Assembly: GCF_024298765.1 (NCBI RefSeq)
Contig: NZ_CP101210.1
Length of the DNA: 64,000 nucleotides
Strand: one strand, 5' to 3'
Source of the DNA: Escherichia coli
Lineage (GTDB): Bacteria > Pseudomonadota > Gammaproteobacteria > Enterobacterales > Enterobacteriaceae
The notes under the pieces: model-generated
What the model saw: only the letters and a program-made list of their open reading frames with translations
Told to the model about the DNA's origin: nothing
Databases searched by the model: none
Position numbers and translations under genes: made by a program
Part shown: positions 1 to 50,358 of the stretch, in pieces
Numbering within the stretch: position 1 is the first letter of the stretch
Layout: each line of letters starts with the position of its first letter

Positions 1-1086
1 GCCACCGATGCGCTTTATACCACAATGCTTACCGGGATGGGGGCGCGACGTCAGCCACTGATGTGGGCCATCACCACCGCCGGGTACAACATTGAGGGGC
101 CGTGCTACGACAAGCGGCGGGAAGTCATCGAGATGCTCAACGGCTCGGTGCCTAACGATGAACTGTTCGGGATCATCTATACCGTTGATGAAGGTGACGA
201 CTGGACCGACCCGCAGGTGCTGGAAAAAGCCAATCCAAATATTGGCGTGTCGGTTTATCGCGAATTTTTGTTAAGTCAGCAGCAGCGTGCGAAAAATAAC
301 GCCCGTCTGGCAAACGTCTTTAAAACGAAACACCTCAATATCTGGGTGTCGGCACGTTCGGCGTATTTCAACCTGGTGAGCTGGCAGAGCTGCGAGGATA
401 AATCACTGACCCTTGAGCAGTTCGAGGGGCAGCCGTGCATTCTGGCCTTTGACCTGGCGCGTAAGCTGGATATGAACAGCATGGCGCGACTTTATACCCG
501 CGAGATTGACGGTAAAACGCATTACTACAGTGTGGCCCCGCGCTTCTGGGTACCGTATGACACGGTGTACAGCGTCGAGAAAAATGAAGATAGACGGACA
601 GCCGAACGCTTTCAGAAATGGGTGGAAATGGGCGTCCTGACCGTTACCGATGGTGCAGAGGTGGATTATCGCTACATCCTCGAAGAGGCCAAAGCGGCGA
701 ACAAAATCAGCCCGGTCAGTGAGTCACCCATCGACCCCTTCGGGGCGACCGGGCTGTCACATGACCTTGCTGATGAAGATCTGAATCCCGTCACTATCGT
801 CCAGAACTTCGCCAATATGTCCGATCCGATGAAAGAGCTGGAAGCAGCGATTGAATCGGGACGCTTTCATCATGACGGCAATCCCATCATGACCTGGTGT
901 ATCGGCAATGTGGTCGGCAAAAACATGCCTGGTAACGATGATTTAGTGAAGCCCGTCAAGGAGCAGGCGGAAAACAAAATCGATGGTGCGGTTGCACTGA
1001 TTATGACGATCGGTCGGGCAATGCTCAAAGAACCTGGCGATTTCCTCTCATCTCTTGATCCGGACGATGATCTCTTAATTCTATGA
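1..1086 (+). CDS. Terminase large subunit, C-terminal part (5' end outside window)
   Basis: Frame of ORF 25..1086 is open back to position 1; sits immediately upstream of portal, protease and capsid genes; stop overlaps next start as ATGA. Confidence 0.75.
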
Positions 1087-1244
1087 AATCACTAATTGCT
1101 GATGTTATCGGGCTGACTGGTTTTGGCCTGCTTACGTGCGGAGTTTACCTGCAGTTTGGTATGGCTCCGGCTCTGATTTTGTCCGGTGCTTTACTGCTGG
1201 TGGGTGCACTGGTTATGGTCAGAAGGGGGACGCGTGCTGCTTGA
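1083..1244 (+). CDS. Small hydrophobic protein, 53 aa (hypothetical)
   Basis: ATG at 1083 overlaps the terminase stop (ATGA); translation [53 protein letters not shown] looks like two membrane helices; below the ORF-track size cutoff. Confidence 0.3.
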
Positions 1245-2460
1245 TGCTCTGTTCAGAAGTAAATCACTGGAGAATCCTTCCACCCCGATAACCGGGGATG
1301 CCGTTGATACTGATGGGCTGTTCCGGGCAGACGTTTATGTCAGTCCTGAAACTGCGATGAAACTGGCTGCGGTGTATTCCTGTATCTATGTCCTGTCTTC
1401 CAGCCTTGCCCAGATGCCGTTGCATGTTATGCGCAGGCACAATGGGAAGGTTGAGCCCGCACGCGATCATCCGGCGTTTTATCTGGTTCATGATGAGCCC
1501 AATACCTGGCAAACCAGTTACAAATGGCGCGAACTGAAGCAACGTCACATCCTTGGCTGGGGGAATGGGTATACCTGGGTGAAACGTAATCGTCGCGGTG
1601 AAGTCATATCTCTGGATTGCTGTATGCCGTGGGAAACGACGCTGATGAATACTGGTGGCCGATACACCTACGGTTTGTACAACGAATATGGGGCGTTTGC
1701 GATCAGCCCCGACGATATGATCCACATCCGAGCGCTGGGTAATAATCAGAAGATGGGGCTGAGTCCGATTATGCAACATGCCGAAACAATAGGCATGGGG
1801 ATGAGCGGTCAGAAGTACACAGAAAGCTTCTTCAGCGGTAATGCCCGTCCGGCGGGGATAGTATCCGTTAAAAGCGGACTCAATAAGGAAAGCTGGGGCT
1901 GGCTTAAAGAACAGTGGCAGAAGGCATCGCAGGCGTTACGCCGCCAGGAAAACAAAACCATGCTGCTGCCAGCCGATCTGGATTACAAGGCACTGACTGT
2001 GTCGCCAGTTGACGCTCAGATCATTGACATGATGAAGCTGAACCGTTCAATGATCGCCGGTATTTTCAATATTCCTGCGCACATGATTAATGACCTCGAA
2101 AAAGCCACCTTCTCCAATATTTCTGCGCAGGCGATTCAGTTTGTCCGCTACACGATGATGCCGTGGGTGACGAACTGGGAGCAGGAGCTTAACCGTCGCT
2201 TGTTTACCCGCGCTGAGTTAGCCGCCGGGTATTACGTCAGGTTCAATCTGACGGGGCTTTTACGCGGAACTCCGCAGGAGCGCGCGCAATTCTATCACTT
2301 CGCTATTACCGATGGATGGATGAGCCGTAATGAGGCCCGCGCATTTGAGGATATGAATCCGGTTGAAGGGCTGGACGAGATGCTGGTAAGCGTGAATGCT
2401 GCTAACCCGGCAGGAGATTTTAAGCCCCCAAAAAACGATGAGGGAAAAACCAATGAATGA
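1186..2460 (+). CDS. Portal protein (HK97-like family)
   Basis: 424 aa ORF between terminase and prohead protease; ORF-track start is GTG at 1186, alternative GTG at 1234 has an AGGGGG Shine-Dalgarno just upstream. Confidence 0.85.
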   Translation: MLYCWWVHWLWSEGGRVLLDALFRSKSLENPSTPITGDAVDTDGLFRADVYVSPETAMKLAAVYSCIYVLSSSLAQMPLHVMRRHNGKVEPARDHPAFYLVHDEPNTWQTSYKWRELKQRHILGWGNGYTWVKRNRRGEVISLDCCMPWETTLMNTGGRYTYGLYNEYGAFAISPDDMIHIRALGNNQKMGLSPIMQHAETIGMGMSGQKYTESFFSGNARPAGIVSVKSGLNKESWGWLKEQWQKASQALRRQENKTMLLPADLDYKALTVSPVDAQIIDMMKLNRSMIAGIFNIPAHMINDLEKATFSNISAQAIQFVRYTMMPWVTNWEQELNRRLFTRAELAAGYYVRFNLTGLLRGTPQERAQFYHFAITDGWMSRNEARAFEDMNPVEGLDEMLVSVNAANPAGDFKPPKNDEGKTNE

Positions 2461-3055
2461 CCGTGAAATCCGTTGTTACAGCGGTGAGGTGCGTGCTGAG
2501 CGGCATGACGATAACCCGGCGCACATTATCGGTTATGGATCGGTGTTTGACTGTCGTTCTGAGCTGATATTCGGTTCATTCCGCGAAATCATCCGGCCCG
2601 GCGCTTTTGACGATGTGCTTGGTGATGATGTACGCGCACTGTTTAACCACGATCCTAATTTTATTCTTGGGCGTAGTGCAGCAGGCACGCTGAATCTTTC
2701 AGTTGATGAGCGCGGATTACGCTATGACATCCAGGCTCCGGAGACACAGACCATTCGTGATCTGGTGCTGGCCCCGATGCAACGTGGAGATATTAACCAG
2801 TCATCTTTCGCTTTCCGTGTCGCCCGTGACGGTGAGGAGTGGTATCAGGATGAGGACGGGGTTGTTATTCGCGAGATAACCCGCTTTTCCCGTCTGCTGG
2901 ATGTCAGTCCTGTGACATATCCTGCCTATCAGGAGGCTGACTCGGCTGTTCGCTCCATGAAAGCATGGCAGGAGGCGCGCAACAGTGGCGCGCTACAGAA
3001 AGCCATTAATCAACGTATGGCGCGTGAACGCGTCCTGACCCTTCTTAACGCGTAA
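2453..3055 (+). CDS. Prohead maturation protease (HK97 family)
   Basis: ATG at 2453 (MNDREIR...) overlapping the portal stop; position between portal and major capsid. Confidence 0.8.
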   Translation: MNDREIRCYSGEVRAERHDDNPAHIIGYGSVFDCRSELIFGSFREIIRPGAFDDVLGDDVRALFNHDPNFILGRSAAGTLNLSVDERGLRYDIQAPETQTIRDLVLAPMQRGDINQSSFAFRVARDGEEWYQDEDGVVIREITRFSRLLDVSPVTYPAYQEADSAVRSMKAWQEARNSGALQKAINQRMARERVLTLLNA

Positions 3056-3065
3056 AGGAAACATC

Positions 3066-4295
3066 ATGAAACTGCATGAACTGAAACAGAAACGTAATAC
3101 TATCGCAACTGACATGCGCGCCCTGAATGAAAAAATTGGTGATAACGCATGGACGGAAGAGCAGCGCACTGAGTGGAACAAAGCAAAATCCGAACTGGAA
3201 GCGCTTGATGAACGAATTGCACGCGAAGAAGAACTGCGTCGTCAGGATCAGGCGTACATTGAAAGCAATGAGGAAGAGCAGCGTCAGAATCTTGATCCGG
3301 AAAACAATCCGCAACAGGATGAGAAACGAGCTCAGGTTTTTGATAAGTGGATGCGTCACGGTGCCAGTGAGCTGACATCAGAAGAACGAAAGGCGTTGCG
3401 TGAACTTCGTGCCCAGGGTGTAGCTCAGGATGAAAAGGGCGGATATACCGTACCAGAAACATTCCTGGCGAAAGTTGTTGAGAAGATGAAATCCTACGGT
3501 GGCATCGCCAGTGTGGCGCAGATTCTGACCACTTCTGACGGTCGCACTATGGAGTGGGCAACAGCTGATGGTACTTCCGAAGTTGGTGTTCTGCTGGGCG
3601 AAAATGAAGAAGCCGGTGAAGAAGACACCGATTTCGGTATGGGAAGTCTTGGGGCGCTCAAAATGACATCGAAAATCATTCGTGTGTCTAATGAGTTGCT
3701 GCAGGACAGCGCGATCGATATGGAAGCTTATCTTGCCCGTCGCATTGCTGAACGTATTGGTCGTGGTGAAGCCCGTTATCTGATTCAGGGAACTGGTGCT
3801 GGTACGCCTAAACAACCCAAAGGGCTGGTCGCATCTGTGACCGGCACAACACAGACTGCCGCGGCAAATACGGTGAAGTGGCAGGAAATTCTGGCTCTGA
3901 AACACAGCATTGATCCTGCATATCGTCGCGGGCCGAAATTCCGCCTGGCGTTTAACGATAATACGCTGAAACTGATCAGTGAGATGGAAGACGGTCAGGG
4001 ACGCCCTTTATGGTTGCCGGATATTGTTGGTGTGGCACCTGCTTCAGTGTTGAATGTACCGTATGTCATTGATCAGGAAATTGATGATATCGGGGCGGGT
4101 AAAAAATTCATGTTCTGTGGTGACTTTGATCGCTTCATTATCCGTCGTGTGCGATACATGATTCTTAAACGTCTGGTTGAGCGTTACGCGGAATATGATC
4201 AGACTGGTTTTCTGGCCTTCCATCGTTTTGACTGTATCCTGGAAGACACCTCTGCCATTAAAGCGCTGGTGGGGAAAGGTAGCGTTGGTGGTTGA
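3066..4295 (+). CDS. Major capsid protein (HK97 fold, with charged N-terminal delta/scaffold domain)
   Basis: 409 aa; N-terminal ~100 residues highly charged and coiled-coil-like (EEQRTEWNKAKSELEALDERIAREEELRRQ), followed by capsid-like body; follows protease. Confidence 0.85.
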   Translation: MKLHELKQKRNTIATDMRALNEKIGDNAWTEEQRTEWNKAKSELEALDERIAREEELRRQDQAYIESNEEEQRQNLDPENNPQQDEKRAQVFDKWMRHGASELTSEERKALRELRAQGVAQDEKGGYTVPETFLAKVVEKMKSYGGIASVAQILTTSDGRTMEWATADGTSEVGVLLGENEEAGEEDTDFGMGSLGALKMTSKIIRVSNELLQDSAIDMEAYLARRIAERIGRGEARYLIQGTGAGTPKQPKGLVASVTGTTQTAAANTVKWQEILALKHSIDPAYRRGPKFRLAFNDNTLKLISEMEDGQGRPLWLPDIVGVAPASVLNVPYVIDQEIDDIGAGKKFMFCGDFDRFIIRRVRYMILKRLVERYAEYDQTGFLAFHRFDCILEDTSAIKALVGKGSVGG

Positions 4296-4320
4296 TTAGT
4301 CTTTTTACGTAATACAGCAC

Positions 4321-4363
4321 GCCGCGTAATGCGGTTTTTTTGTGCCCGCGTTCTGGCGGGCAC
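4321..4363 (+). terminator. Stem-loops with T-run after the capsid gene (putative partial terminator)
   Basis: CCGCGTAATGCGG followed by TTTTTTT, then perfect 8-bp stem GTGCCCGC-loop-GCGGGCAC immediately before the RBS of the next gene. Confidence 0.35.
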
Positions 4364-4373
4364 AGGAGGTTTT

Positions 4374-4697
4374 ATGCTGTTAAAAATGGAAGAGATTAAG
4401 CTTCAGCTCCGTCTGGATGATGATTTCTCTGATGAAGATGAGTTGCTTGAACTGCTTGGTAAGGCCGCTCAGAGTCGTACGGAAAACTTCCTTAACCGTA
4501 AGTTGTATGCAACCGCAGATGACAGGCCTGCGGATGATCCTGATGGGCTTGTGATATCTGATGATGTGAAGCTGGCGCTTCTGCTACTTGTCAGCCATTT
4601 CTACGAAAACCGCTCAACGGTTACAGACGTTGAGAAAATGGAGTTGCCAATGAGTTTTAACTGGTTGGTTGTTCCTTATCGCCTTATACCACTATGA
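4374..4697 (+). CDS. Head-tail connector protein (gp6-like)
   Basis: ATG at 4374 preceded by AGGAGG; small acidic protein in the expected position after capsid. Confidence 0.65.
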   Translation: MLLKMEEIKLQLRLDDDFSDEDELLELLGKAAQSRTENFLNRKLYATADDRPADDPDGLVISDDVKLALLLLVSHFYENRSTVTDVEKMELPMSFNWLVVPYRLIPL

Positions 4698-5104
4698 AAA
4701 TTCGTCAGGCGCAGACCAGCGCAACCTACATTCTGCCGGACCCCGGCGAACTGAATAAACGCGTCCTGATCCGCCAGCGGGTGGATATGCCCGCGGATAA
4801 CTTTGGCGTGGAGCCTCAATACCCGGTTGCGTTCCGGGCATGGGCGAAGGTTATCCAGACCAGTGCCACCACCTGGCAGGAAACCGCGCAGACCGGAGAC
4901 GCCATCACCCATTACATCACCATTCGCTACCGCCGGGGGATCACTGCTGATTATGAGGTGGTCTGTGATGACAGTGTGTACCGGGTGAAACGTCAGCGCG
5001 ATCTGAACGGGGCGCGGCGCTTTCTGCTGCTGGAGTGTACGGAACTGGGCGAATTTACGCAGAGTCACGGAGGCAGCAATGGCGACTCCCTTTTTTCACG
5101 TTGA
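4694..5104 (+). CDS. Head closure / head-tail adaptor protein
   Basis: 136 aa ORF coupled to neighbours by overlapping stop/start; position in head-completion block. Confidence 0.6.
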   Translation: MKIRQAQTSATYILPDPGELNKRVLIRQRVDMPADNFGVEPQYPVAFRAWAKVIQTSATTWQETAQTGDAITHYITIRYRRGITADYEVVCDDSVYRVKRQRDLNGARRFLLLECTELGEFTQSHGGSNGDSLFSR

Positions 5105-5585
5105 TGTTCAGCAGCCCGCGGAGATGCGCTTTAACCGCGCCCGTGTCCGGCGGGCGTTTGTCACGATTGGGCAGCGTCATATGCGTGATGCCCGTCGGCT
5201 GGTGATGCGCCGTGCGCGGTCGGCACCGGGTGAAAACCCCGGTTATCAGACCGGACGCCTGGCTCGTTCGATTGGTTACATGGTGCCGAGAGCCAGTAAA
5301 AAGCGAGCCGGTTTTATGACACGCATTGCCCCTAACCAGCGCAACGGGAAGGGGAACCGGATGATCTCTGGTGACTTCTATCCGGCGTTTCTGTTTTTTG
5401 GTGTCCGGGGAGGAGCAAAACGTCGTCGTAGTCATCATCGTGGTGCATCCGGTGGCAGCGGCTGGCGGCTGGCTCCACGTAATAACTTTATGGTGGAAAC
5501 GCTTGAAAAGAACCGCAGCTGGACACGCTATTTTCTGGCGCGGGAATTGCGTAAATCACTGAAGCCGGAGCGACGACACAGATGA
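5079..5585 (+). CDS. Neck/tail-completion protein (HK97 gp10-like)
   Basis: 168 aa basic protein in the head-tail joining block. Confidence 0.5.
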   Translation: MATPFFHVDVQQPAEMRFNRARVRRAFVTIGQRHMRDARRLVMRRARSAPGENPGYQTGRLARSIGYMVPRASKKRAGFMTRIAPNQRNGKGNRMISGDFYPAFLFFGVRGGAKRRRSHHRGASGGSGWRLAPRNNFMVETLEKNRSWTRYFLARELRKSLKPERRHR

Positions 5586-6142
5586 AACTGACGCCTGTTA
5601 TTGCTGCGCTGCGTGCCCGCTGCCCGTATTTTGAAAACCGGGTGGCAGGCGCGGCACAGTTCAAAAATCTGCCGGAGGTCGGAAAGCTGAGACTCCCGGC
5701 GGCGTATGTGGTACCGGGTGATGACTCTCCGGGAGAAAACAAAAGCCAGACCGACTACTGGCAGGAGCTGAAAGAGGGCTTCTCCGTGGTTGTCATACTG
5801 AGTAACGGGCGTGATGAGCGCGGTCAGTTTGCCTCGTATGATGTGGTGGACGATGTCCGGCAGATGCTCTTTAAGGCTCTGCTGGGCTGGAACCCGGAAG
5901 CGTGCGGTAACCCGATTACCTATGACGGCGGCACGCTGCTGGATCTGAATCGTCATGAGCTGATTTATCAGTTCGATTTTTCGGTCATCAGCGAGCTGAC
6001 CGAAGACGATACCCGCCAGCAGGATGACCTGAACAGTCTGGATGAACTGCGAACGCTGGCGATTGATGTTGATTATCTCGATCCCGGTAACGGGCCTGAC
6101 GGCGATATCGAACATCACACCGAAATAACCCTTCCTTCCTGA
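5582..6142 (+). CDS. Tail-completion/terminator-like protein (Mu gp37-like position)
   Basis: 186 aa ORF overlapping upstream stop; precedes tail sheath gene. Confidence 0.45.
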   Translation: MKLTPVIAALRARCPYFENRVAGAAQFKNLPEVGKLRLPAAYVVPGDDSPGENKSQTDYWQELKEGFSVVVILSNGRDERGQFASYDVVDDVRQMLFKALLGWNPEACGNPITYDGGTLLDLNRHELIYQFDFSVISELTEDDTRQQDDLNSLDELRTLAIDVDYLDPGNGPDGDIEHHTEITLPS

Positions 6143-6150
6143 GAATCTTC

Positions 6151-6321
6151 ATGTTTGTGAAACCTGTTAAAGGGCGGTCAGTTCCTGACCCTGCCCGCGG
6201 TGACCTTTTGCCCGCCGAGGGGCGAAATGTTGATGAGAACAACTACTGGCTGCGCCGTGAAGCAGCGGGTGATATCCGGCGCGTGAATGAAAAGGTGAAT
6301 ACCGATGACGATAAGCTTTAA
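6151..6321 (+). CDS. Small conserved phage protein upstream of tail sheath (56 aa)
   Basis: ATG at 6151, translation MFVKPVKGRSVPDPARGDLLPAEGRNVDENNYWLRREAAGDIRRVNEKVNTDDDKL; overlaps sheath start; not in ORF track (under 60 aa). Confidence 0.4.
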   Translation: MFVKPVKGRSVPDPARGDLLPAEGRNVDENNYWLRREAAGDIRRVNEKVNTDDDKL

Positions 6322-7801
6322 CACCATTCCGTCGAATACGCTGGTTCCGATTTTTTATGCGGAAATGGATAACCAGGCGGCGAATACTGCACAGGACAGC
6401 GGAGCATCGCTGCTGATTGGTCATGCCAATAACGGTGCAGAGATTGTTGCCAACAGTCTGGTGCTGATGCCATCGGCAGACTATGCACGCCAGATTTGTG
6501 GTGCGGGAAGTCAGCTGGCGCGTATGGTCGAGGCTTATCGCCAGACCGACCCGTTTGGTGAACTGTATGTGATTGCCGTTCCTGAATCCACGGGCGCGGC
6601 GGCAACAGTTACGCTGACGGTGACCGGCGCGGCAACCGAAACCGGCACGGTGAATGTTTATGTGGGACGTACCCGCGTGCAGGCTCCGGTGACCAACGGC
6701 GATAACGTCACGACGATTGCCAGCAGTATCCAGGATGCCATCAATGCCGTTCCGGCCCTGCCGTTTACGGCTTCATCTTCGGCAGGCGTGGTCACACTGA
6801 CCGCGCGTCATAAGGGGCTTTGCGGGAATGAAATTCCTGTCAGCCTCAATTACTACGGCTTTGGTGGGGGCGAAGTGCTGCCAGCGGGCGTACAGATTGC
6901 CGTGGCGACGGGGACCGCCGGTACGGGTGCTCCGGTTCTCACCGGCGCGGTGGCTGCAATGGCGGATGAGCCGTTTGATTATATCGGCCTGCCGTTCAAC
7001 GACACGGCCTCCGTTAACACGCTGGTGACCGAGATGAACGATACCAGCGGTCGCTGGAGCTATGCGCGTCAGCTGTATGGTCATGTGTATACGGCAAAGA
7101 TCGGCACGCTGTCAGAACTGGTGACCGCAGGTGACCAGTTTAACCAGCAGCACATTACCCTGGCGGGATACGAAAAAGAGACCCAGACGCCTGCCGACGA
7201 GCTGGCGGCAAGCCGTACCGCCCGCGCAGCGGTGTTTATTCGCAACGATCCGGCACGTCCCACGCAGACCGGTGAGCTGGTGGGTATGCTGCCTGCGCCG
7301 AAGGGGAAACGGTTCACGATGACTGAACAACAGACCCTGCTGTCTCATGGCGTGGCAACGGCGTATGTCGAAAGTGGGGTGCTGCGCATTCAGCGTGATG
7401 TCACCACGTACAGGAAAAACGCTTACGGTGTTGCGGATAACAGCTACCTCGACAGCGAGACGCTGCATACCAGTGCGTATGTACTGCGCAAACTGAAATC
7501 CGTCATTACCAGTAAGTACGGGCGTCACAAGCTTGCCAGCGACGGTACCCGCTTTGGTCCCGGTCAGGCGATTGTCACCCCGGCGGTGATCAAAGGGGAA
7601 CTGCTGGCAACCTACCGTCAGCTTGAGCGTGCGGGGATCGTGGAAAACTACGAACTGTTCAAGCAGTACCTGGTTGTGGAGCGTGATGCCAGCGATCCGA
7701 ACCGCCTGAACACGCTGTTCCCGCCTGACTATGTTAACCAGTTGCGTGTCTTTGCCGTGGTTAACCAGTTCCGTCTTCAGTATTCAGAGGAGTCTGCATA
7801 A
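6305..7801 (+). CDS. Tail sheath protein (contractile tail, Mu-like)
   Basis: 498 aa; followed by tube, chaperone with frameshift, and tape measure in the canonical myovirus order. Confidence 0.85.
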   Translation: MTISFNTIPSNTLVPIFYAEMDNQAANTAQDSGASLLIGHANNGAEIVANSLVLMPSADYARQICGAGSQLARMVEAYRQTDPFGELYVIAVPESTGAAATVTLTVTGAATETGTVNVYVGRTRVQAPVTNGDNVTTIASSIQDAINAVPALPFTASSSAGVVTLTARHKGLCGNEIPVSLNYYGFGGGEVLPAGVQIAVATGTAGTGAPVLTGAVAAMADEPFDYIGLPFNDTASVNTLVTEMNDTSGRWSYARQLYGHVYTAKIGTLSELVTAGDQFNQQHITLAGYEKETQTPADELAASRTARAAVFIRNDPARPTQTGELVGMLPAPKGKRFTMTEQQTLLSHGVATAYVESGVLRIQRDVTTYRKNAYGVADNSYLDSETLHTSAYVLRKLKSVITSKYGRHKLASDGTRFGPGQAIVTPAVIKGELLATYRQLERAGIVENYELFKQYLVVERDASDPNRLNTLFPPDYVNQLRVFAVVNQFRLQYSEESA

Positions 7802-8157
7802 TGGCCCGTATCGGGGGAACCTGTTATTTCAAAATTGACGGTCAGCAGCTATCGCTGACCGGCGGCATTGAGGTGCCCATGAACAGGATGGTTAATGATG
7901 ACATCATCGGCCTGGACGGTTCAGTGGACCGCAAGGAAACTCACCGTGCGCCTTATGTCAAAGGGACCTTCAAGGTGCCGAAGAATTTTCCGGTGGGCAA
8001 AATCACCTCGTCTGATGAGATGACAATCACTGCCGAGCTGGCGAACGGTCAGGTCTATGTACTGTCGTCTGCTTGGCTGCACGGCGAAGCGAACCATAAT
8101 GCCGAAGAAGGCACGGTCGATCTTGAGTTCCACGGTGAAGAAGGGGATTACCAGTAA
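7801..8157 (+). CDS. Tail tube protein
   Basis: 118 aa directly after sheath, start overlapping sheath stop (TAATG). Confidence 0.8.
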   Translation: MARIGGTCYFKIDGQQLSLTGGIEVPMNRMVNDDIIGLDGSVDRKETHRAPYVKGTFKVPKNFPVGKITSSDEMTITAELANGQVYVLSSAWLHGEANHNAEEGTVDLEFHGEEGDYQ

Positions 8158-8426
8158 TGAAAGAGCTTGAGTTAAAGAAACCGATTACCGCTCATGGCGA
8201 GACACTCTCCGTACTGGAGTTTGATGAGCCCACCGGGAAAGATGTCCGCGAGCTGGGGTATCCCTACCAGATGAATCAGGATGAGTCCGTCAGACTTCTG
8301 GCGCATGTGGTATCGAAATATATTGTGCGGCTGGCGAAAGTGCCGCAAAGCTCTGTCGACCAGATGTCTCCGGCAGACCTGAATGCAGCGGCGTGGCTTG
8401 TGGCTGGTTTTTTCCTCCAGGCCTGA
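8157..8426 (+). CDS. Tail assembly chaperone (short form)
   Basis: 89 aa ORF immediately before tape measure; ends just after a T-TTT-TTC slippery heptamer. Confidence 0.7.
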   Translation: MKELELKKPITAHGETLSVLEFDEPTGKDVRELGYPYQMNQDESVRLLAHVVSKYIVRLAKVPQSSVDQMSPADLNAAAWLVAGFFLQA

Positions 8427-8575
8427 CGGCTGAATACCTTACTGATCGCTTCTTTGATTGCGCCAGCTACTGGCGCATTAATCCTTTCGAATTGCTGAAT
8501 ATGCCGATCAGTGAAATTCCCTTGCTGGTCAGTCAGGCAAACAGGATAGAGCAGGAGAAACGCACACATGGCTGA
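8393..8575 (+). CDS. -1 frame extension of tail assembly chaperone (programmed frameshift product, long form 8157..8575)
   Basis: ORF in the -1 frame overlaps the chaperone 3' end; slippery heptamer T_TTT_TTC at 8408..8414; extension ends overlapping the tape measure start. Confidence 0.5.
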   Translation: MACGWFFPPGLTAEYLTDRFFDCASYWRINPFELLNMPISEIPLLVSQANRIEQEKRTHG

Positions 8576-10403: not shown

Positions 10404-10427
10404 TGAAAAATTAATCTGTTAATGAGT

Positions 10428-10448
10428 CCCACTCCGGTGGGATTTTTT
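10428..10448 (+). terminator. Short hairpin plus T-run between tape measure and baseplate genes (putative attenuating terminator)
   Basis: CCCAC-TCCG-GTGGG followed by ATTTTTTAT. Confidence 0.3.
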
Positions 10449-10463
10449 ATGTACGGAGTTTAT

Positions 10464-11792
10464 ATGACGTGGAAAGACAGACTTCAGGACGCGTCATTTC
10501 GCGGTGTGCCGTTTAAGGTTGAAGAAGAAAGTGCGGGAACCGGTCGTCGTGTGGAAACGCACGAATACCCGAACCGCGACAAACCCTATACCGAAGACCT
10601 GGGGAAAATCACTTTCCGCCCGTCCATCACAGCTTATGTGGTGGGAGATGACTGCTTTGACCAGCGCGATCGCCTGATTGACGCGCTGAATAAACCCGGT
10701 CCCGGCACGCTTGTCCATCCGACTTACGGTGAGCTGAAAGTCTGTGTTGACGGGGAAGTTCGGGTCAGCACATCGAAGAGTGAAGGGCGTATTGTCCGCT
10801 TTGACCTGAAGTTTGTCGAAGCGGGAGAACTCTCTTACCCCACTTCAGGTGCGGCGACGGCGCAGACGCTGATGTCATCCTGTTCTGCACTGGATGACTG
10901 CATCAGTGACAGCTTCAGTGGTTTCAGTATCGATGGCGTGGCAGATTTTGTGCAGAACGACGTCGTCGGTAATGCCGGCACAATGCTGGGGTATGTTTCT
11001 GATGCGATGAAAGTGGTGGATTCTGCCGTATCGGATGCCGCCAGGCTGTTGCAGGGGGATATCTCGGTACTTCTGCCGCCGCCATCGTCAGGCAAAAATT
11101 TCGTTGAGCAGGTGCAGAAAATGTGGCGTACCGGGAAACGCCTTTATGGTAACGCCAGCGACCTGGTCACCATGATCAAAACGCTTTCCGGTGTCAGCCT
11201 CGGCAGCGATCTGCAACCGCGCGGTGTCTGGAAAACGGACAGTAAAACCACCGCCACGGCGACGCAGCAGCGTAACGTGGTTGCCAGCATCCTTCGTACG
11301 ACCGCAATCAGCGAAGCGGCGTATGCCGTCACCCGATTGCCTGCGCCAACAACTTCCGCGGTGATGCAGAATGCCGCAGTGGGGCAGGCAACAACACCCG
11401 CGCAGAGCACTGGCTGGCCTTCCGTCACGCATCCGGCACTGAACAATGCACCGGCGGTGAAAAACACGGTTGACCTGCCGACGTGGGAAGAACTGACTGA
11501 CATTCGCGACACACTGAATACGGCAATTGATAAGGAGTTGTCCCGTACAACCAGTGATGCGCTGTTTCTGGCGCTGCGCCGGGTGAAAGCAGATCTGAAT
11601 GCGGATATCAACACGCGCCTTGAACAGTCTGCACGGATCATTCAGCGCACGCCGGATGAGGTTTTACCCGCGCTGGTGCTGGCGGCGACCTGGTTTGATA
11701 ACGCGGCGCGTGACGCGGACATTATCCGGCGTAATGCCATTACACATCCCGGCTTTGTGCCGGTGATCCCTCTGAAGGTGCCAGTGCAATGA
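10464..11792 (+). CDS. DNA circulation protein (Mu gp43-like)
   Basis: N-terminus MTWKDRLQDASFRGVPFKVEEE resembles the Mu gp43 family; ATG at 10464 chosen over ORF-track start 10422. Confidence 0.7.
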   Translation: MTWKDRLQDASFRGVPFKVEEESAGTGRRVETHEYPNRDKPYTEDLGKITFRPSITAYVVGDDCFDQRDRLIDALNKPGPGTLVHPTYGELKVCVDGEVRVSTSKSEGRIVRFDLKFVEAGELSYPTSGAATAQTLMSSCSALDDCISDSFSGFSIDGVADFVQNDVVGNAGTMLGYVSDAMKVVDSAVSDAARLLQGDISVLLPPPSSGKNFVEQVQKMWRTGKRLYGNASDLVTMIKTLSGVSLGSDLQPRGVWKTDSKTTATATQQRNVVASILRTTAISEAAYAVTRLPAPTTSAVMQNAAVGQATTPAQSTGWPSVTHPALNNAPAVKNTVDLPTWEELTDIRDTLNTAIDKELSRTTSDALFLALRRVKADLNADINTRLEQSARIIQRTPDEVLPALVLAATWFDNAARDADIIRRNAITHPGFVPVIPLKVPVQ

Positions 11793-12868
11793 ACGACAAT
11801 GTCACGCTACGGGTAAATGGCCGGGAGTGGAATGGCTGGACATCGGTGCGCATCGGTGCCGGTATTGAACGGCTGGCGCGGGATTTCAGTGTGGAGATCA
11901 CTCGCCAGTGGCCGGGAGATGAGGGTATCACCACGCTTCAGCCGCGCATTAAAAACGGTTCAAAAGTGGAAGTGCTGATTGGTGATGAGCTGGTGATCAC
12001 CGGCTGGGTGGAGGCGACTCCCGTTCGTTACGATGCCCGTTCGGTCAGCACCGGTATTGCCGGACGTAGTCTGACGGCTGACCTGATTGACTGTGCAGCC
12101 GAACCGACACAGTTTAACGGACGCTCGCTGGTGCAGATTGCGCAGGCGCTTGCTGCGCCTTTCGGCATTGAGGTGGTGAACAGCGGTGCGCCGTCGGGTG
12201 TTATTCCTGATGTTCAGCCTGATCACGGTGAAACGGTGATTGAGGTGATCAACAAAATACTCGGTCAGCAGCAGGCGCTGGCTTACGACGACCCGCACGG
12301 CAGGCTGGTGATTGGCGGTATTGGCTCAACGCGGGCACATACCGCGCTGGTACTTGGGGAAAACATCCTTTCCTGTGATACGGAGAAGAGTATCCGGGAG
12401 CGGTTTTCTGTTTACCAGGTGGCGGGGCAGCGTGCCGGAAACGACGATGATTTCGGTGAGGCCACCACCACCGCGCTGCGGGCACGCACAGAGGACGCAT
12501 TTATTGCCCGTTACCGTCCGATGTATATCAGGCAGACAGGGCAGGCCACGGGGGCAGGTTGTATTGCGCGTGCTGACTTTGAAGCCCGACAACGGGCGGC
12601 GCGGACGGATGAAACCACCTATGTGGTGCAGGGCTGGCGACAGGGTAACGGTACGCTGTGGCAGCCCAACCAGCGGGTGATTGTCTTCGATCCGGTCTGT
12701 GGTTTCGACAATACCGAACTGCTTGTCTCGGAAGTCACGTTTACTCAGGACCAGAACGGCACCCTGACGGAAATCCGTGTCGGCCCACCTGATGCTTATC
12801 TGCCTGAACCCGAAGCCCCCGGCGCGCGGAAAAAGAAAAAAGCCAGAGTACAGGAGGACCCGTTCTGA
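11789..12868 (+). CDS. Baseplate hub protein (Mu gp44 / P-like)
   Basis: 359 aa; order after DNA circulation protein as in Mu-type tails. Confidence 0.7.
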   Translation: MNDNVTLRVNGREWNGWTSVRIGAGIERLARDFSVEITRQWPGDEGITTLQPRIKNGSKVEVLIGDELVITGWVEATPVRYDARSVSTGIAGRSLTADLIDCAAEPTQFNGRSLVQIAQALAAPFGIEVVNSGAPSGVIPDVQPDHGETVIEVINKILGQQQALAYDDPHGRLVIGGIGSTRAHTALVLGENILSCDTEKSIRERFSVYQVAGQRAGNDDDFGEATTTALRARTEDAFIARYRPMYIRQTGQATGAGCIARADFEARQRAARTDETTYVVQGWRQGNGTLWQPNQRVIVFDPVCGFDNTELLVSEVTFTQDQNGTLTEIRVGPPDAYLPEPEAPGARKKKKARVQEDPF

Positions 12869-13416
12869 TGAGGACGATTGAAGCCATGCAGCGACAACTC
12901 CTCGGCCTGATTGGGCGGGCCGTGGTGAAAAGCATCAGTGCCGCCACGAAATGTCAGACCGTGGATGTGTCCCTGATTGCCGGTGAACCCAAAGCCGGGG
13001 TTGAACATCTTGAACCCTACGGTTTTACCGCAAGGGCAAACAGCGGTGCGGAAGCGGTGGTGTTGTTTCCGGATGGCGACCGTTCTCATGCGGTGGTTGT
13101 TACGGTGTCGGACCGGCGCTACCGCCTGAAAGGGCTGCAGACGGGTGAGGTGGCTGTCTATGACGATCAGGGGCAGTCCGTGACGCTGACCCGGGAGGGG
13201 ATCGTGGTGGACGGTGCAGGTAAAACGATCACGTTTCGCAATTCACCTAAAGCACGTTTTGAAATGGACCTGGAAGTGACAGGACAGGTGAAAGACCTGT
13301 GCGACTCCAGCGGCACTACCATGTCAGCGATGCGGCTTGCCTATAACGGGCATCGTCACAGAGAGAACGGTCAGGGCAGTAACACCGACAAACCGGATAA
13401 AGCGATGGAGGCATGA
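12868..13416 (+). CDS. Baseplate spike/assembly protein (gpV / Mu gp45-like)
   Basis: 182 aa; position and coupling within baseplate cluster. Confidence 0.65.
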   Translation: MRTIEAMQRQLLGLIGRAVVKSISAATKCQTVDVSLIAGEPKAGVEHLEPYGFTARANSGAEAVVLFPDGDRSHAVVVTVSDRRYRLKGLQTGEVAVYDDQGQSVTLTREGIVVDGAGKTITFRNSPKARFEMDLEVTGQVKDLCDSSGTTMSAMRLAYNGHRHRENGQGSNTDKPDKAMEA

Positions 13417-13841
13417 TGGAACTGTGGCTGACGGTGAACGGTAAACGCACCTGCGCCAGCGCACCGCTGGATCCGCTGACCCGCGCCGTGGTGATTTCCC
13501 TGTTTACCTGGCGGCGGGCGGAGCCTGATGACAACGCCGACGTCCCGATGGGATGGTGGGGGGATACCTGGCCTGCGGTACAGAATGACCGTTACGGCTC
13601 CCGACTGTGGCTGCTTCAGCGCAGCAAACTGACCAATCAGCTGGTGCAGACAGTAAGGGGGTATATCCGCGAATGCCTGCAATGGATGATTGATGACGGC
13701 GTGGTGTCCCGTATTGATCTGGATATCCGCCGCACCGGGATTAATGAGCTGGGTAACAGTATCACCCTCTGGCGTCGTGACGGACCGGTAATGATTTCTT
13801 TTGATGATCTGTGGAGTGCGATAACGCATGGCGGACAGTGA
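13413..13841 (+). CDS. Baseplate wedge protein (Mu gp46 / gpW-like)
   Basis: 142 aa; position within baseplate cluster. Confidence 0.6.
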   Translation: MMELWLTVNGKRTCASAPLDPLTRAVVISLFTWRRAEPDDNADVPMGWWGDTWPAVQNDRYGSRLWLLQRSKLTNQLVQTVRGYIRECLQWMIDDGVVSRIDLDIRRTGINELGNSITLWRRDGPVMISFDDLWSAITHGGQ

Positions 13842-14886
13842 ATTTCAGCGCCCGACGCTGGCAGAAAATATCAGTATGCTCCGTAACGATTTATTCGCCA
13901 GGCTGGACGTCAGCGACACGCTCCGGCGCATGGATGAAGACGTGCGGGCAAAGGTGTATGCGGCGGCGCTGCATACGGTTTACGGTTACATCGATTATCT
14001 GGCAATGAACATGCTGCCTGATCTGTGCGATGAGTCCTGGCTGGCGCGACATGCTGCGATGAAACGGTGTCCGCGCAAGGGGGCCACGGCTGCCAGCGGG
14101 TATATGCGCTGGGAAGGTGTCAGCGATGGCCTGAAGGTGACCGCCGGGAGTGTTATTCAGCGCGATGACCTGGTTCAGTACACGGCAACTGCCGATGCAA
14201 CCAGCACTGGTGGTGTCCTGCGTGTGCCGATCACTTGCTCAACTACAGGCGCGGTCGGTAACGCTGACGACGGTACGGCATTAATCCTGGTCACACCGGT
14301 GAATGGTCTGCCGTCTTCCGGTGTGGCTGACACCCTGACAGGCGGATTTGATACTGAAGAGCTGGAAACGTGGCGCGCCCGCGTCATTGAGCGGTATTAC
14401 TGGACGCCTCAGGGCGGGGCTGACGGGGACTATGTCGTCTGGGCTAAAGAAGTGCCCGGCATTACCCGCGCATGGACATACCGACACTGGATGGGAACGG
14501 GGACTGTCGGTGTGATGATTGCCAGCAGTGACCTGATTAATCCCATTCCGGAAGAGTCAACGGAAACGGCGGCAAGACAACATATCGAGCCACTGGCCCC
14601 GGTGGCAGGCTCTGATTTGTATGTATTCAGGCCGGTGGCGCATAAAGTGGATTTTCATATCCGCGTGACGCCGGACACACCGGAAATACGGGCTGCCATC
14701 ACCGCCGAGTTGCGTTCGTTCCTGCTGCGTGATGGTTATCCGCAGGGAGAACTGAAGGTGTCACGTATCAGTGAAGCGATTTCCGGTGCGAACGGGGAAT
14801 ACAGCCATCAGTTGCTTGCACCGGCAGACAATATCGCCATTGCAAAAAATGAACTGGCGGTACTGGGGACGATTTCATGGACGTGA
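13828..14886 (+). CDS. Baseplate J-like protein (Mu gp47-like)
   Basis: 352 aa; position within baseplate cluster. Confidence 0.75.
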
Positions 14887-15461
14887 CAAACGATGATTAC
14901 ATCCGTCTGTTGTCGGCACTGTTGCCCCCCGGTCCGGCGTGGTCAGCCAGCGATCCGGCGATTGCCGGTGCGGCACCGTCATTAACCCGCGTTCATCAGC
15001 GTGCGGATGCCCTGATGCGGGAGCTGGATCCGCGCACTACCACTGAACTGATAAACCGCTGGGAGCGTCTGTGCGGTCTGCCGGATGAATGTATTCCCGC
15101 AGGGACACAGACCCTTCGCCAGCGTCAGCAACGGCTGGATGCGAAGGTTAACCTGTCGGGTGGCATCAACGAGGATTTTTATCTTGCACAGCTTGCTGCC
15201 CTGGGCAGACCAGATGCCACCATCACGCGATACGACAAAAGCACGTTCACCTGCTCATCGGCCTGTACTGACGCTGTGAACGCGCCTGAATGGCGGTATT
15301 ACTGGCAGGTCAACATGCCAGCCGCCACCAACACCACCTGGATGACATGTGGCGATCCCTGTGATTCCGCACTGCGTATCTGGGGCGACACCGTTGTCGA
15401 GTGTGTGCTTAACAAACTCTGCCCGTCGCATACCTACGTAATTTTTAAATATCCGGAGTAA
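14877..15461 (+). CDS. Tail protein, Mu gp48 / YmfQ-like
   Basis: 194 aa, same size and position as e14 YmfQ immediately upstream of the tail-fibre genes. Confidence 0.65.
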
Positions 15462-15464
15462 TCC

Positions 15465-16115
15465 ATGCATCGTATAGACACGAAAACCGCGCAGAAGGAT
15501 AAGTTCGGCGCGGGTAAGAACGGTTTTACCCGTGGTAACCCCCAGACCGGCACGCCTGCCACCGATCTGGATGATGACTACTTTGACATGTTGCAGGAGG
15601 AGCTTTGCAGCGTTGTGGAGGCGTCCGGTGCCAGCCTGGAGAAGGGGCGGCACGACCAGCTGCTTACCGCGCTTCGTGCGCTGCTGTTAAGCCGCAAGAA
15701 TCCGTTTGGTGATATCAAATCGGATGGCACGGTGAAAACGGCTCTCGAAAACCTTGGTTTGGGAGAAGCGGCGAAAAGGGATGTGGGCACAGGAGAAAAT
15801 CAGATACCGGATATGTCAGCCTGGAAAAGAAATCCGAGTTCTAATCGCTGGAGAAAATTGCCTGATGGAACCATCATTCAAATGGGAATATCAGCATCAG
15901 GGCCATTAGGCTCACCTGTAAATATCACCCTGCCGATATCTTTCAGCAATACCAATTATTGTGTTGTTGCATCGTACGATAATGCACGGTCAGGTGTGTC
16001 AACAATGGTTAGTTTTGCAGCGTTACCTGTTTCACCATCGCAATTTTCCCTGATGTCATCTGTGACTGAGCAAGGAATAAATCCTTTTGCTTACTGGATT
16101 GCTTTTGGAGATTAA
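15465..16115 (+). CDS. Side tail fibre protein (constant N-terminus fused to currently expressed variable C-terminus)
   Basis: 216 aa; invertase crossover site lies inside the gene at 15742..15767 (codons for LENLGLGE); sequence after the site is noticeably more AT-rich. Confidence 0.75.
15742..15767. repeat. Invertase crossover site (left), gix/pix-like 26-bp site
   Basis: CTCTCGAAAACCTTGGTTTGGGAGAA; its 14-bp arm TTGGTTTGGGAGAA is the exact inverted copy of 17607..17620. Confidence 0.6.
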
Positions 16116-16118
16116 TAA

Positions 16119-16538
16119 ATGGATAGATACTTCTATTCACAAAAAGAAAATGGTTTTTTTACCGATTTAAATAAAGCACCTTCAGATGCTGTTGAGATAA
16201 CCACGGATGAATGGCTGTTACTACTGGATGGTCAGGATAATGGCATGAAAATAGTCAGCAATCAGGAGGGATATCCGGTTTTGACAGAGCAACCACCTTT
16301 ATCAAAAGAAAACCTTATTGCATTGGCGGATTTGAAAAAAAGAAAACTTATTAATGAAGCCAACGAGCACATGAACAGCAGACAATGGCCAGGTAAAGCG
16401 GCGATTGGTCGCCTGAAAGGTGAGGAACTGGCGCAATATAATTTGTGGCTGGATTATCTGGACGCACTGGAACTGGTCGATACTTCCGGTGCGCCAGATA
16501 TTGAATGGCCTACGCCTCCGGCAGTTCAGGCCAGATGA
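16119..16538 (+). CDS. Tail fibre assembly protein (expressed orientation)
   Basis: 139 aa directly after the fibre gene; AT-rich like the expressed fibre C-terminus. Confidence 0.75.
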   Translation: MDRYFYSQKENGFFTDLNKAPSDAVEITTDEWLLLLDGQDNGMKIVSNQEGYPVLTEQPPLSKENLIALADLKKRKLINEANEHMNSRQWPGKAAIGRLKGEELAQYNLWLDYLDALELVDTSGAPDIEWPTPPAVQAR

Positions 16539-17115
16539 CGTCCGGCGCGGTGCTGGTATCTGTTGCCGTCACCGCGTCAATGTAATCCAGCACAGCGTTA
16601 AGTCGGGTGTTTTCTGTCTGCATCAGCTTCCGCCCGGCCTGCAATTTCAGTTGAATCAGACTAATGGAAGCCATTGCAGTATCAATCAGTGACTGACGCT
16701 GTGCTTCTGCCGCGTCTACTGCGGCGCTATGCTGTGCCTCAGTATCGGTCACCCATTTCTCACCATCCCATTTATCGTATGGCGTTAATGGGGCGATAGT
16801 GGTTGTATTTTCAGGGTAATCACCCGGAACTGTGATTTCTTTGGTATCTCCCGTTTCGGTACTATAGACAACTTCACCGCGATGGTCTGGCACATATTCC
16901 CATGAATTTAAATCTACAGAGCGACAGATTGCATAACCAGCTTTATGTGTACCTGGTGCATCCAAACAGGAACATGCCGGGATACCGACGCCGACAGCGA
17001 GATATTCAGTTGATGTAGAAATATATTCCCGCGTTTCACCATCATAATTATAAACGGTAATATCTCCCGCTTTTATGGCAATGAGTTCGCTATTTAATAC
17101 AGCTTTATTCATCAT
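16510..17115 (-). CDS. Tail fibre assembly protein (alternative, expressed after inversion)
   Basis: 201 aa on opposite strand, converging on and overlapping the 3' end of the other assembly gene. Confidence 0.75.
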   Translation of the reverse strand: MMNKAVLNSELIAIKAGDITVYNYDGETREYISTSTEYLAVGVGIPACSCLDAPGTHKAGYAICRSVDLNSWEYVPDHRGEVVYSTETGDTKEITVPGDYPENTTTIAPLTPYDKWDGEKWVTDTEAQHSAAVDAAEAQRQSLIDTAMASISLIQLKLQAGRKLMQTENTRLNAVLDYIDAVTATDTSTAPDVIWPELPEA

Positions 17116-17632
17116 GCGGCCCTCACAATATAATTAAAAGCGATGTTACGAGGACGAGTTTCTGTACCTACATTTTCACTAATTTCACCATAACGTTTAA
17201 CACTACGAGAGCTAATAGCTCGTAGTGAGGAAGGCACCTTAAGACCGGGTTCGTCCGTTTTAACTATTCCCCCGTCACCGTATGTAGCCAGTATTCCTGG
17301 GTTTACTCCTTCCCGTGCACTTCCTGCGGCGAGTCCGTCCCCTGTCCATAATTCCATATAGTGTGCATGGTCCAAAATTGTGTGTGGCTGCCAATTAAGC
17401 AAAGCGCGACCAGTATCAATCCCGCGACCGTCATCCCAGCCACGAATAAATTCACCGCGTAAATCAGGCAATTTATTGGTCGGGTAAGCCTTTGCCAGTT
17501 CCGGGTATTCTTCAGCAGAAAAAGCCGCACCGTTGCATTTCAGCCAGCCTGTTGGCGGAGTGGCGGAAGGCCACGGAACAGGCACACCAACGGGTAATGC
17601 CGAACCTTCTCCCAAACCAACGTTTATGAAAA
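17112..17632 (-). CDS. Alternative tail-fibre variable C-terminal segment (silent in this orientation)
   Basis: Minus-strand ORF 17112..17660 reads through the right crossover site; contains the conserved fibre motif PWPSATPPTGWLKCNGAAF...YPELAKAYP; would fuse to the constant N-terminus on inversion. Confidence 0.65.
17607..17632. repeat. Invertase crossover site (right), gix/pix-like 26-bp site
   Basis: TTCTCCCAAACCAACGTTTATGAAAA, about 55 bp upstream of the invertase start. Confidence 0.6.
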
Positions 17633-17686
17633 TGCAGAAATAACGAGCAAATGGCATCATTCCTGCTTTTGTCAGGGAGATCTACC

Positions 17687-18241
17687 ATGCTTATTGGCTA
17701 TGTACGTGTGTCAACAAATGACCAGAACACAGATCTACAGCGTAATGCGCTGAACTGTGCAGGATGCGAGCTGATTTTTGAAGACAAGATAAGCGGTACA
17801 AAGTCTGAAAGGCCGGGACTGAAAAAACTGCTCAGGACATTATCGGAAGGTGACACTCTGGTTGTCTGGAAGCTGGATCGGCTGGGGCGTAGTATGCGGC
17901 ATCTGGTCATTCTGGTTGAGGAGTTGCGCGAACGTGGCGTTAATTTTCGCAGCCTGACGGATGCTATTGATACCAGCACACCGATGGGGCGTTTTTTCTT
18001 TCATGTGATGGGTGCCCTAGCTGAAATGGAACGAGAACTGATTGTTGAACGAACAAAAGCTGGACTGGAAGCTGCTCGCGCACAGGGACGAATTGGTGGA
18101 CGTCGTCCCAAACTTACACCAGAACAATGGGCGCAGGCTGGGCGATTAATTGCATCAGGCGTTCCTCGCCAGAAGGTGGCGATCATCTATGATGTTGGTA
18201 TATCGACACTGTATAAGAAGTTTTCGGTCGGAGATAAATGA
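17687..18241 (+). CDS. pin: Serine DNA invertase, Pin/Gin/Cin family
   Basis: MLIGYVRVSTNDQ active-site serine motif at N-terminus, C-terminal HTH; very close to e14 PinE as recalled; ATG at 17687 inside ORF-track 17651..18241. Confidence 0.9.
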   Translation: MLIGYVRVSTNDQNTDLQRNALNCAGCELIFEDKISGTKSERPGLKKLLRTLSEGDTLVVWKLDRLGRSMRHLVILVEELRERGVNFRSLTDAIDTSTPMGRFFFHVMGALAEMERELIVERTKAGLEAARAQGRIGGRRPKLTPEQWAQAGRLIASGVPRQKVAIIYDVGISTLYKKFSVGDK

Positions 18242-18298
18242 AACCGTAGCACGTCGTATGCAAGATCGTGCTGCGGTTTATGCTTATCACTTAAAGAC

Positions 18299-19117
<819 letters not shown>

Positions 19118-19478
19118 TCATTGCAAGGGCTCACAACCAGTAGTGTTGAGAAAACCATCGGAGAAATGAGGCTAAGCCTTTGAATTTACATAGTACAAAA
19201 AAGATACTTTTCCTCATAATGTGAGCTAATTTTATGTTTCGTTTGATGATTGGACCGGTCTCGAAAACCGTAGACACATAGTATGCGTTAATTTATGAAC
19301 AAACTACTTGTCTGCTGTTTTTCTGTCATTAGTCGTATATAGAATGATTCTCTATGCCTAACAAAGCATCACCAGTGCTAGATTACGTTGTAGTCACTGT
19401 TTAAATATCCAGATAAAACATTTCCTTCTGGGTTGAATGAGTGATAAAGTTTCACCCATTAGACCCCTTGGAGGAATT

Positions 19479-22263: not shown

Positions 22264-22389
22264 TGTCACTCGAGAGCCGCGGCTCCTTTGCGTATCCTTT
22301 TTTATCTCCTCACCGTCTGGTCGGTGTCCTGCTGAGACTGCTAACTTCCTGTTTTTGTTGGTGTTGTCCTTACACCGTCCAATCATGAT

Positions 22390-31911: not shown

Positions 31912-32081
31912 TCGGCCTGGCTTGTTTGCCATTTTGGCACCGGGGTGTGCTCGTCATCCTCACGTATTGCGTGTACGCTCCGGTGACTGCGCGCACTCCG
32001 GCACCAAACTGGCTGCACCGCCGACGGCCTTTTACAGCAGAGTTAGCAACTGTTGATTGCAATTTCTGCAAAAATGAGTAA

Positions 32082-50239: not shown

Positions 50240-50316
<77 letters not shown>

Positions 50317-50358
50317 AATTTGCACGGCAAATTTGAAGAGGTTTTAACTACATGTTAT

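Follow-up and report, generated by a model that had tools for sequence, protein, structure and literature searches.

The closest described relative of the element considered here is the Shigella phage SfV (U82619 / NC_003444). Like SfI and SfIV, SfV is an inducible myovirus whose tail is contractile, and the relationship among SfV, SfI and the Escherichia coli K-12 element e14 has been covered in later papers (PMC3636060, PMC3851460). The joining of an HK97-type head to a Mu-type tail is an old finding, not particular to the present strain: it was published for SfV in 2002-2003, the SfV GenBank record (U82619.2) already annotates Mu similarities, and a 2003 paper in the reference list of PMC3636060 has a title stating that the SfV structural genes evolved from two phage families. 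Against this background, a stretch of 64,000 nucleotides (nt) of E. coli DNA (contig NZ_CP101210.1; “the window”) was compared with phage, prophage and protein family collections. Its first 22.4 kb are very probably the right arm of a prophage, an SfV-like temperate myovirus that has inserted into an E. coli-type chromosome at the 3′ end of ssrA. What is mildly new is its location at ssrA, the presence of a Pin switch on an SfV-type tail, and a cargo of PD-T4-3 and EcoRII genes, all of them variations of known kinds.

The best match among phage records is to SfV, which aligns with window positions 1-15815 in one piece (megablast) at 97.8% nucleotide identity. The offset between the two sets of coordinates is fixed at 1206 along all 15.8 kb, so there are no insertions or deletions relative to SfV; the two are colinear from terL through the fibre gene's N-terminal half, and share a capsid terminator, a frameshift site and a left pix-like sequence, described below. 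By homology, positions 1-18241 are the late (virion-building) operon of the predicted prophage, transcribed left to right: the listing of open reading frames (ORFs) and the family scans give a single unbroken plus-strand operon from 25 to 16538, after which come two genes on the minus strand and, on the plus strand again, an invertase gene ending at 18241. Intergenic spacing is -26 to +10 nt across most genes; wider gaps follow terL (147 nt), the capsid gene (78 nt), and the tape measure gene (45 nt). All 20 of the SfV genes compared are full length in the window; 18 give proteins of SfV length, while orf7 and orf15 differ only by the start codon chosen. Protein identity to SfV is mostly 98-100% (exceptions: orf7, 90%, and orf8, 92%). 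There are 250 synonymous and 76 non-synonymous differences, for a ratio of non-synonymous to synonymous change (dN/dS) of 0.09 by a Nei-Gojobori count, which is the pattern expected if the window and SfV lineages both stayed working phages after they diverged. A patch over orf7 and orf8 (window 4700-5600) stands apart, with about 92% nucleotide identity to SfV vs. about 98% elsewhere and dN/dS of 0.24-0.51; another relative probably supplied it, as a short tract acquired by recombination.

An earlier, sequence-only reading of this DNA had described the genes as intact and tightly coupled, and had placed the element in an SfV/e14 lineage in which e14 itself is a degenerate relic; the comparisons bear out each of these points. 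The e14 element of K-12 keeps fragments only, matching window 1-1025, 14099-15776, 16371-17164, and 17403-18242, and has nothing that matches 1026-14098. What it does keep is very similar: the aaaE terminase fragment (96%), jayE (gp47; 96%), ymfQ (gp48; 98%), TfaE (90.5%), and PinE (94%). Two boundaries in that reading have to be moved, however. It had taken the portal gene as the first in the module and position 18241 as the end of the prophage; the first gene is instead a truncated terminase, the window start falling within terL, and the prophage continues past 18241 and reaches ssrA at 22390.

The head is, on the evidence of its protein families, of HK97 type, with counterparts of the HK97 head genes (gp2-gp7) in the HK97 order: a terminase, a portal, an S78 protease, a capsid without a scaffold gene, a terminator hairpin, a gp6-type adaptor, and a gp7-type closure protein, all here on the plus strand. 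Four of these, the terminase, portal, protease, and adaptor, match HK97 gp2, gp3, gp4, and gp6 directly, at 26-29% identity. The large terminase is represented by its 3′ part (25-1086; the C-terminal 353 of 577 amino acids), 99.7% identical to residues 225-577 of SfV orf2 and 27% identical to HK97 gp2, with a Pfam TerL_nuclease match (E 5e-35). The portal gene (1186-2460; 99.1% to SfV orf3; 26% to HK97 gp3, E 5e-42; PF04860, E 2e-98) is given a GTG start at 1186 in SfV vs. a start at 1234 in RefSeq relatives. It is followed by a prohead serine protease of the HK97 gp4 family (2453-3055; 100% to SfV orf4; 29% to HK97 gp4; Peptidase_S78, E 4e-41).

The major capsid protein gene (3066-4295) begins 10 nt after the protease gene, with no scaffold ORF in the gap. 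Its product carries PF05065 at residues 125-402 (E 3e-65), and its best solved relatives are the HK97-family capsids 6tb9/6tba (E 7e-14), the alignment starting from residue 120. The N-terminus beyond the capsid domain is a highly charged extension of about 120 amino acids, which fits a putative delta/scaffold domain; we infer that this domain would be removed by proteolysis. Just 3′ of the capsid gene, a strong hairpin with a 14-bp stem and a T-run (4336-4369, plus strand), a putative attenuating terminator, matches in position the terminator annotated in SfV at 5547-5584. Beyond it lie the predicted head-tail adaptor of HK97 gp6 type (4374-4697; PF05135; phrog_40, common to HK97 gp6) and the head closure, or head completion, protein of HK97 gp7 type (4694-5104; PF05521; phrog_25, common to HK97 gp7). 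In HK97 itself, these head genes are joined to a non-contractile lambda-type tail.

The tail is, by the same kind of evidence, a contractile one of the Mu type. Homologues of Mu gp38, L, N, P, and gp45-48 are found in Mu order, at 27-43% identity (E 1e-12 to 8e-89), within a series running DUF2635 protein, sheath, tube, chaperone, tape measure, N, P, and gp45-48 as in Mu, all on the plus strand. The first gene with direct Mu similarity encodes a DUF2635 protein (orf10; 6151-6321; 42% to Mu gp38; PF10948). Next is the contractile tail sheath (6305-7801), 36% identical to Mu L (E 8e-89) and matching the solved sheath 9khy (495 amino acids, the length of Mu L) at E 1e-79, and then the tail tube (7801-8157; PF10618, E 6e-33). 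After the chaperone, taken up below, come the tape measure (8568-10403; PF10145; 98.9% to SfV orf14), a DNA circulation protein of the Mu N type (10422-11792; PF07157 [DNA_circ_N], E 7e-34; 43% to the N-terminus of Mu N), and a GpP/gp44 hub (11789-12868), 35% identical to Mu P/gp44 and matching both the solved Mu gp44, 1wru (E 2e-50), and 9ki1. The baseplate block (11789-15461), which opens with this hub, goes on with homologues of Mu gp45 (12868-13416; 27%; Pfam Mu Gp45), gp46 (13413-13841; 41%; Pfam GP46), gp47 (13828-14886; 30%; Pfam Baseplate_J), and gp48 (14877-15461; 30%; Pfam Mu Gp48). Over the tail and fibre switch together, nine proteins are 27-43% identical to those of Mu, and the invertase 78%. 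The resemblance to Mu stops there: the head, packaging, and life style of the predicted prophage (lambdoid, with site-specific integration) are unrelated to the transposable biology of Mu.

Between head and tail are two plus-strand genes whose affinities are harder to place. The first (orf8; 5079-5585) has no Pfam match, and falls in phrog_879, 'tail completion or Neck1' (E 3e-95), suggesting a neck or tail completion protein; the second (orf9; 5582-6142) is a predicted tail terminator, by PF23840 (E 2e-26) and a sub-threshold match to Mu Gp37. Neither of them (phrog_879 and phrog_209) has a PHROG in common with HK97 gp10/gp11 or with Mu G/gp37, and the head/tail joint is therefore only bracketed by distant homology, at 5.1-6.15 kb. 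The sequence-only reading had a HK97-type head, connectors like HK97 gp6, gp9, and gp10, and a tail on the Mu scheme from 6.1 kb. Its head assignment agrees with the terminase, portal, and protease matches to gp2, gp3, and gp4 and with PF05065 in the capsid, and its tail assignment with the ordered Mu homologues, since detectable direct Mu similarity begins at 6151. As to the connectors, the gp6 label is upheld by the HK97 gp6/gp7 PHROGs, but gp9 and gp10 are loose labels, the orf8 PHROG matching neither that of HK97 gp10 nor that of Mu G.

The joint defined by distant homology is not the place where living relatives exchange their heads. Among these, the exchanged cassette ends at about 4.58 kb, not at 6.1 kb: SfI, SfII, SfIV, e14, and many E. 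coli prophages have another HK97-type head cassette replacing window ~1005-4587, with neck and tail unchanged (PMC3636060 Table 1; PMC3851460). Recurrent recombination junctions at ~1005-1025 and ~4572-4587 flank this portal-protease-capsid cassette, the terminase and the neck and tail being held in common. The e14 gene beeE is a fragment of the other portal type, with 30% identity to the one here.

The tail assembly chaperone (8157-8575, plus strand; Phage_TAC_7) has a short form, 8157-8426, and a predicted long form reaching 8575 by a -1 slip. A canonical -1 slippery heptamer, T_TTT_TTC, lies in the zero frame at 8408-8414, close to where that frame ends (GGT TTT TTC CTC CAG GCC TGA), and the -1 frame runs on without a stop for 55 codons; it ends at 8575, overlapping the tape measure gene by 8 nt. 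SfV has an identical slip site and an identical 55-amino-acid extension. In the Stx phage phiP27, at about 74% nucleotide identity here, there is a T_TTT_TTT and a 54-codon extension at the equivalent position; this extension has the W-[RK]-x-N-P-x-E-L motif too, and it likewise stops a little way into the tape measure gene. This conservation in SfV and phiP27, which agrees with the frameshifted chaperone of the sequence-only reading, supports programmed -1 frameshifting as the means by which the chaperone may be made in two forms. A simple X_XXY_YYZ scan of the annotated frame of Mu gp41 found no slip site, so the comparison rests on SfV and phiP27.

At the downstream end of the operon is an invertible fibre cassette, also anticipated by that reading, whose layout is that of the Mu G-segment (S/U/U′/S′ and Gin): a fibre, its assembly protein, an inverted assembly protein and fibre, and then an invertase, with gix-like crossover sites. 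The fibre gene in its current orientation (15465-16115, plus strand; tail fibre PHROGs; PF21882, gp53-like) consists of a constant part, 15465-15768, and a variable part, 15769-16115; identity to SfV falls after about 15815. Two 20-nt inverted repeats, 95% complementary, are the putative recombination sites, of pix/gix type: the left one is within the fibre gene (15749-15768, plus strand) and the right one is at 17606-17625 (minus strand), and together they bracket 1,837 nt (15769-17605). Their core, AAACC-TT-GGTTT, has the dyad of the Mu gix site (AAACC-TC-GGTTT) and is identical to that of the e14 pix sites; e14 also has the same stf/tfa inversion layout. In the bracketed region and just past its right end, the fibre assembly protein of the current orientation (16119-16538, plus strand; Caudo_TAP, E 3e-25) is followed by two minus-strand genes, one for an alternative assembly protein of TfaE type (16510-17115; Caudo_TAP, E 3e-30; 90.5% to e14 TfaE) and the other an alternative fibre C-terminal cassette with a Collar domain (17112-17660; PF07484), predicted to be promoterless until inverted. 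The two sites are at the same codon phase, and both fusion frames are open: in a simulated inversion, the constant 101-codon N-terminus is joined to an open 164-codon C-terminus with the Collar domain, giving a 265-amino-acid fibre, with the TfaE-type gene next to it. The invertase itself is a Pin serine recombinase of 184 amino acids (17687-18241, plus strand; Resolvase and HTH_7), 78% identical to Mu Gin and 94% to e14 PinE; its N-terminus is MLIGYVRVSTNDQ, and the ORF starting from 17651 is an over-extension.

In the prophage of E. coli O103:H2 strain CEC12044 this segment has the opposite orientation, and its breakpoints coincide exactly with the repeats at 15749-15768 and 17606-17625. Comparison of the two prophages thus shows inversion of the segment in the population, and the fibre switch therefore operates in nature. 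The contents of the segment vary as well. The silent fibre cassette (window 16792-17605) differs among otherwise 99%-identical prophages: strain M37H has a diverged stretch that is 30 nt longer (29165-29427 of the M37H stretch), and the silent cassette of CEC12044 is different altogether, which points to cassette shuffling at the predicted receptor-binding end. SfV has no invertase, second site, or alternative fibre cassette, but keeps (at SfV position 16955) a left pix/gix-like site identical to that in the window. This retention of the left site alone suggests that SfV descended from an ancestor with an invertible segment.

The module is present at 80% coverage or more in 249 of 5,426 complete E. 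coli genomes; M37H carries it at 99.7%. The CEC12044 prophage is 99.6% identical and occupies the same ssrA site. In M37H and CEC12044 the left arm is complete and of lambdoid type, comprising cI and cro, the replication genes, Q, the lysis genes, HNH, and terS; the integrase was seen in M37H only, where the left-arm region was retrieved. Between Q and its lysis genes, the M37H prophage also has the two genes of a Kiwa defence system, KwaA and KwaB (6455-7866 of the M37H stretch, outside the window); CEC12044 has other genes in this place. Deposited phage genomes with the module are those of SfV, SKA5, and vB_EcoM-689R6/720R4. Escherichia phage SKA5 (OR670062) matches window 1087-17625 at 97.8%, with both the invertible fibres and the invertase represented, but has a different integrase region and lacks the EcoRII cargo. 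The phiP27 layout from head to tail is again the same, including the conserved chaperone frameshift, but at ~74-78% identity that phage is much more diverged, and it carries stx.

Taken together, the intactness of the genes, the purifying selection, the inversion seen at population level, and the near-identity to SfV, SKA5, and vB_EcoM-689R6/720R4 argue for a phage that is functional, or was so until very recently. Publication of phages of the SfV group as induced particles with contractile tails (PMC3636060, PMC3851460) also favours this. Several observations weigh on the other side. The arm that serves regulation and lysogeny, with the integrase, the repressor, Q, the lysis genes, terS, and the 5′ 224 codons of terL, is outside the window and may hold lesions; the closest relatives among the complete genomes are 99.3-99.7% identical, and none is identical; and in the CEC12044 prophage an IS3 element interrupts a left-arm DUF968 gene, so decay does occur in this prophage lineage. 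The two halves of the structural assignment also have their weak points. The capsid is too diverged from that of HK97 for BLAST, with no BLASTP match to gp5 at E 0.01, and is linked to it only via PF05065 and the solved HK97-family capsids; phmmer at maximum sensitivity gave only a weak local alignment (5.7 bits, 90 residues) to gp5. The Lys-Asn isopeptide cross-link of HK97 involves K169, N356, and E363; in that weak and unreliable alignment K169 is opposite a residue other than lysine. On the tail side, BLAST gave no direct match to Mu for the tube, the chaperone, the tape measure, or the fibres, which are tied to it through common Pfam families or position only.

On balance we lean towards this copy being inducible, and no further than that, because its left arm lies outside the window. 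The alternative that survives best is a cryptic, non-inducible remnant, inactivated very recently somewhere else, for example by an insertion sequence or deletion in the left arm, as in e14. The unseen left arm leaves room for such a lesion, e14, of the same lineage, has lost much of its DNA to deletion, and the relatives offer examples of damage, in the IS3 insertion in CEC12044 and in a frameshifted small ORF in the early region of the M37H prophage. However, the structural genes are all full length, with the low dN/dS reported above measured against an inducible phage; both fibre orientations are found in near-identical copies; and near-identical relatives have complete left arms (terS, lysis genes, Q, and cI, with an integrase too in M37H). 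We consider a dead copy unlikely, and prefer a working or very recently working phage.

A second alternative, that the junction of HK97-type and Mu-type genes reflects a recent, strain-specific recombination and hence a newly formed hybrid phage, takes its appeal from the fact that the nearest distant relatives of the head and the tail genes are different model phages. It is refuted by the junction itself, which is found base for base in SfV, whose record is annotated with the Mu similarities, and again in SKA5 and the 249 E. coli genomes, the same head-tail order being seen even in phiP27. A last alternative is a tailocin, or R-type bacteriocin, domesticated to yield tails alone. Such a particle too would have switchable fibres and a contractile sheath, with tube and baseplate, but the reading is rejected, given the intact terminase, portal, protease, capsid, and connector genes directly upstream in the same operon and under purifying selection, and the att repeats that in relatives flank the whole element, integrase included.

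If the prophage is a working one, the steps by which its particles would be built can be proposed from the protein families. The terminase would package DNA through the HK97-family portal, into a shell whose capsid protein may assemble on a scaffold formed by the extension at its N-terminus; the S78 protease would then cut this extension off. The gp6/gp7-type connectors and the neck protein would close the head. A Mu-type contractile tail, in the style of Mu and P2, with sheath, tube, tape measure, and gp44-48-type baseplate, would be capped by the terminator protein; ribosomes slipping by -1 at T_TTT_TTC would give the tail chaperone its two forms. Pin could flip the 1.8-kb segment between the gix-like sites, joining the constant 101-codon N-terminus of the fibre to either of two C-terminal receptor-binding cassettes, each with its own assembly chaperone, and so bring about a switch in host range.

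The right end of the element sets it apart from both of its best-known relatives. Past the invertase are three genes of predicted cargo: a PD-T4-3 single-gene GIY-YIG defence protein (18299-19072, minus strand; PADLOC, E 5e-140), an EcoRII-type C5 methylase (19437-20912, plus strand; Pfam), and the EcoRII endonuclease (20947-22161, minus strand; PDB 1na6, E 3e-243). The ssrA gene, for transfer-messenger RNA (22390-22752, minus strand; ARAGORN; tag ANDENYALAA), follows, and its 3′ end constitutes a putative attR core of 31 nt (22389-22419, minus strand; TTGGTGGAGCTGGCGGGAGTTGAACCCGCGT). This core is present once in the window, and recurs 41 kb away at the far end of the M37H prophage, beyond the integrase; the far copy adjoins the integrase and three small genes, with a second integrase island beyond. 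By these junctions the prophage is at ssrA, and not at the site of either relative: SfV integrates at thrW (PMC3636060), and e14 is located in icd. A placement like that of e14, at icd, was considered and rejected on the basis of the ssrA junction.

The slot that PD-T4-3 and a complete EcoRII restriction-modification pair occupy in the window prophage is taken in SfV by the O-antigen genes gtrA/B/V and in e14 by mcrA. No gtr genes were found in the window prophage, and this, with the ssrA junction, makes it an SfV-like phage but not a serotype converter. In prophages of the SfV/e14 type, the region that lies past the fibre/invertase genes and reaches to attR might be a site where cargo is swapped in, holding gtr genes in SfV, mcrA in e14, and here a defence island of two systems. 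The element might then be a distinct phage of SfV type, integrating at ssrA and still inducible, by which EcoRII and PD-T4-3 pass between E. coli strains and which switches its host range by means of Pin. We find about as much reason to accept this broader proposal as to doubt it.

The importance of the element beyond correct annotation is small, a chimera of HK97-type head and Mu-type tail being textbook modular evolution of phages. The practical value is in marking the region as the apparently intact right arm of a prophage at ssrA, in a fibre switch that comparison shows to be active in the population, and in the PD-T4-3 and EcoRII cargo, which could affect the susceptibility of the host strain to phages and its uptake of DNA.

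The chromosome flanking the prophage is 98.3-99.6% identical to that of E. coli strains. Within this part of the window, a stretch of about 126 nt 3′ of ffh (31912-32038) is not found in M37H or CEC12044, and genes for tRNA-Ile(GAT) and tRNA-Ala(TGC) at about 50.3 kb (50240-50434) mark the spacer of an rRNA operon.

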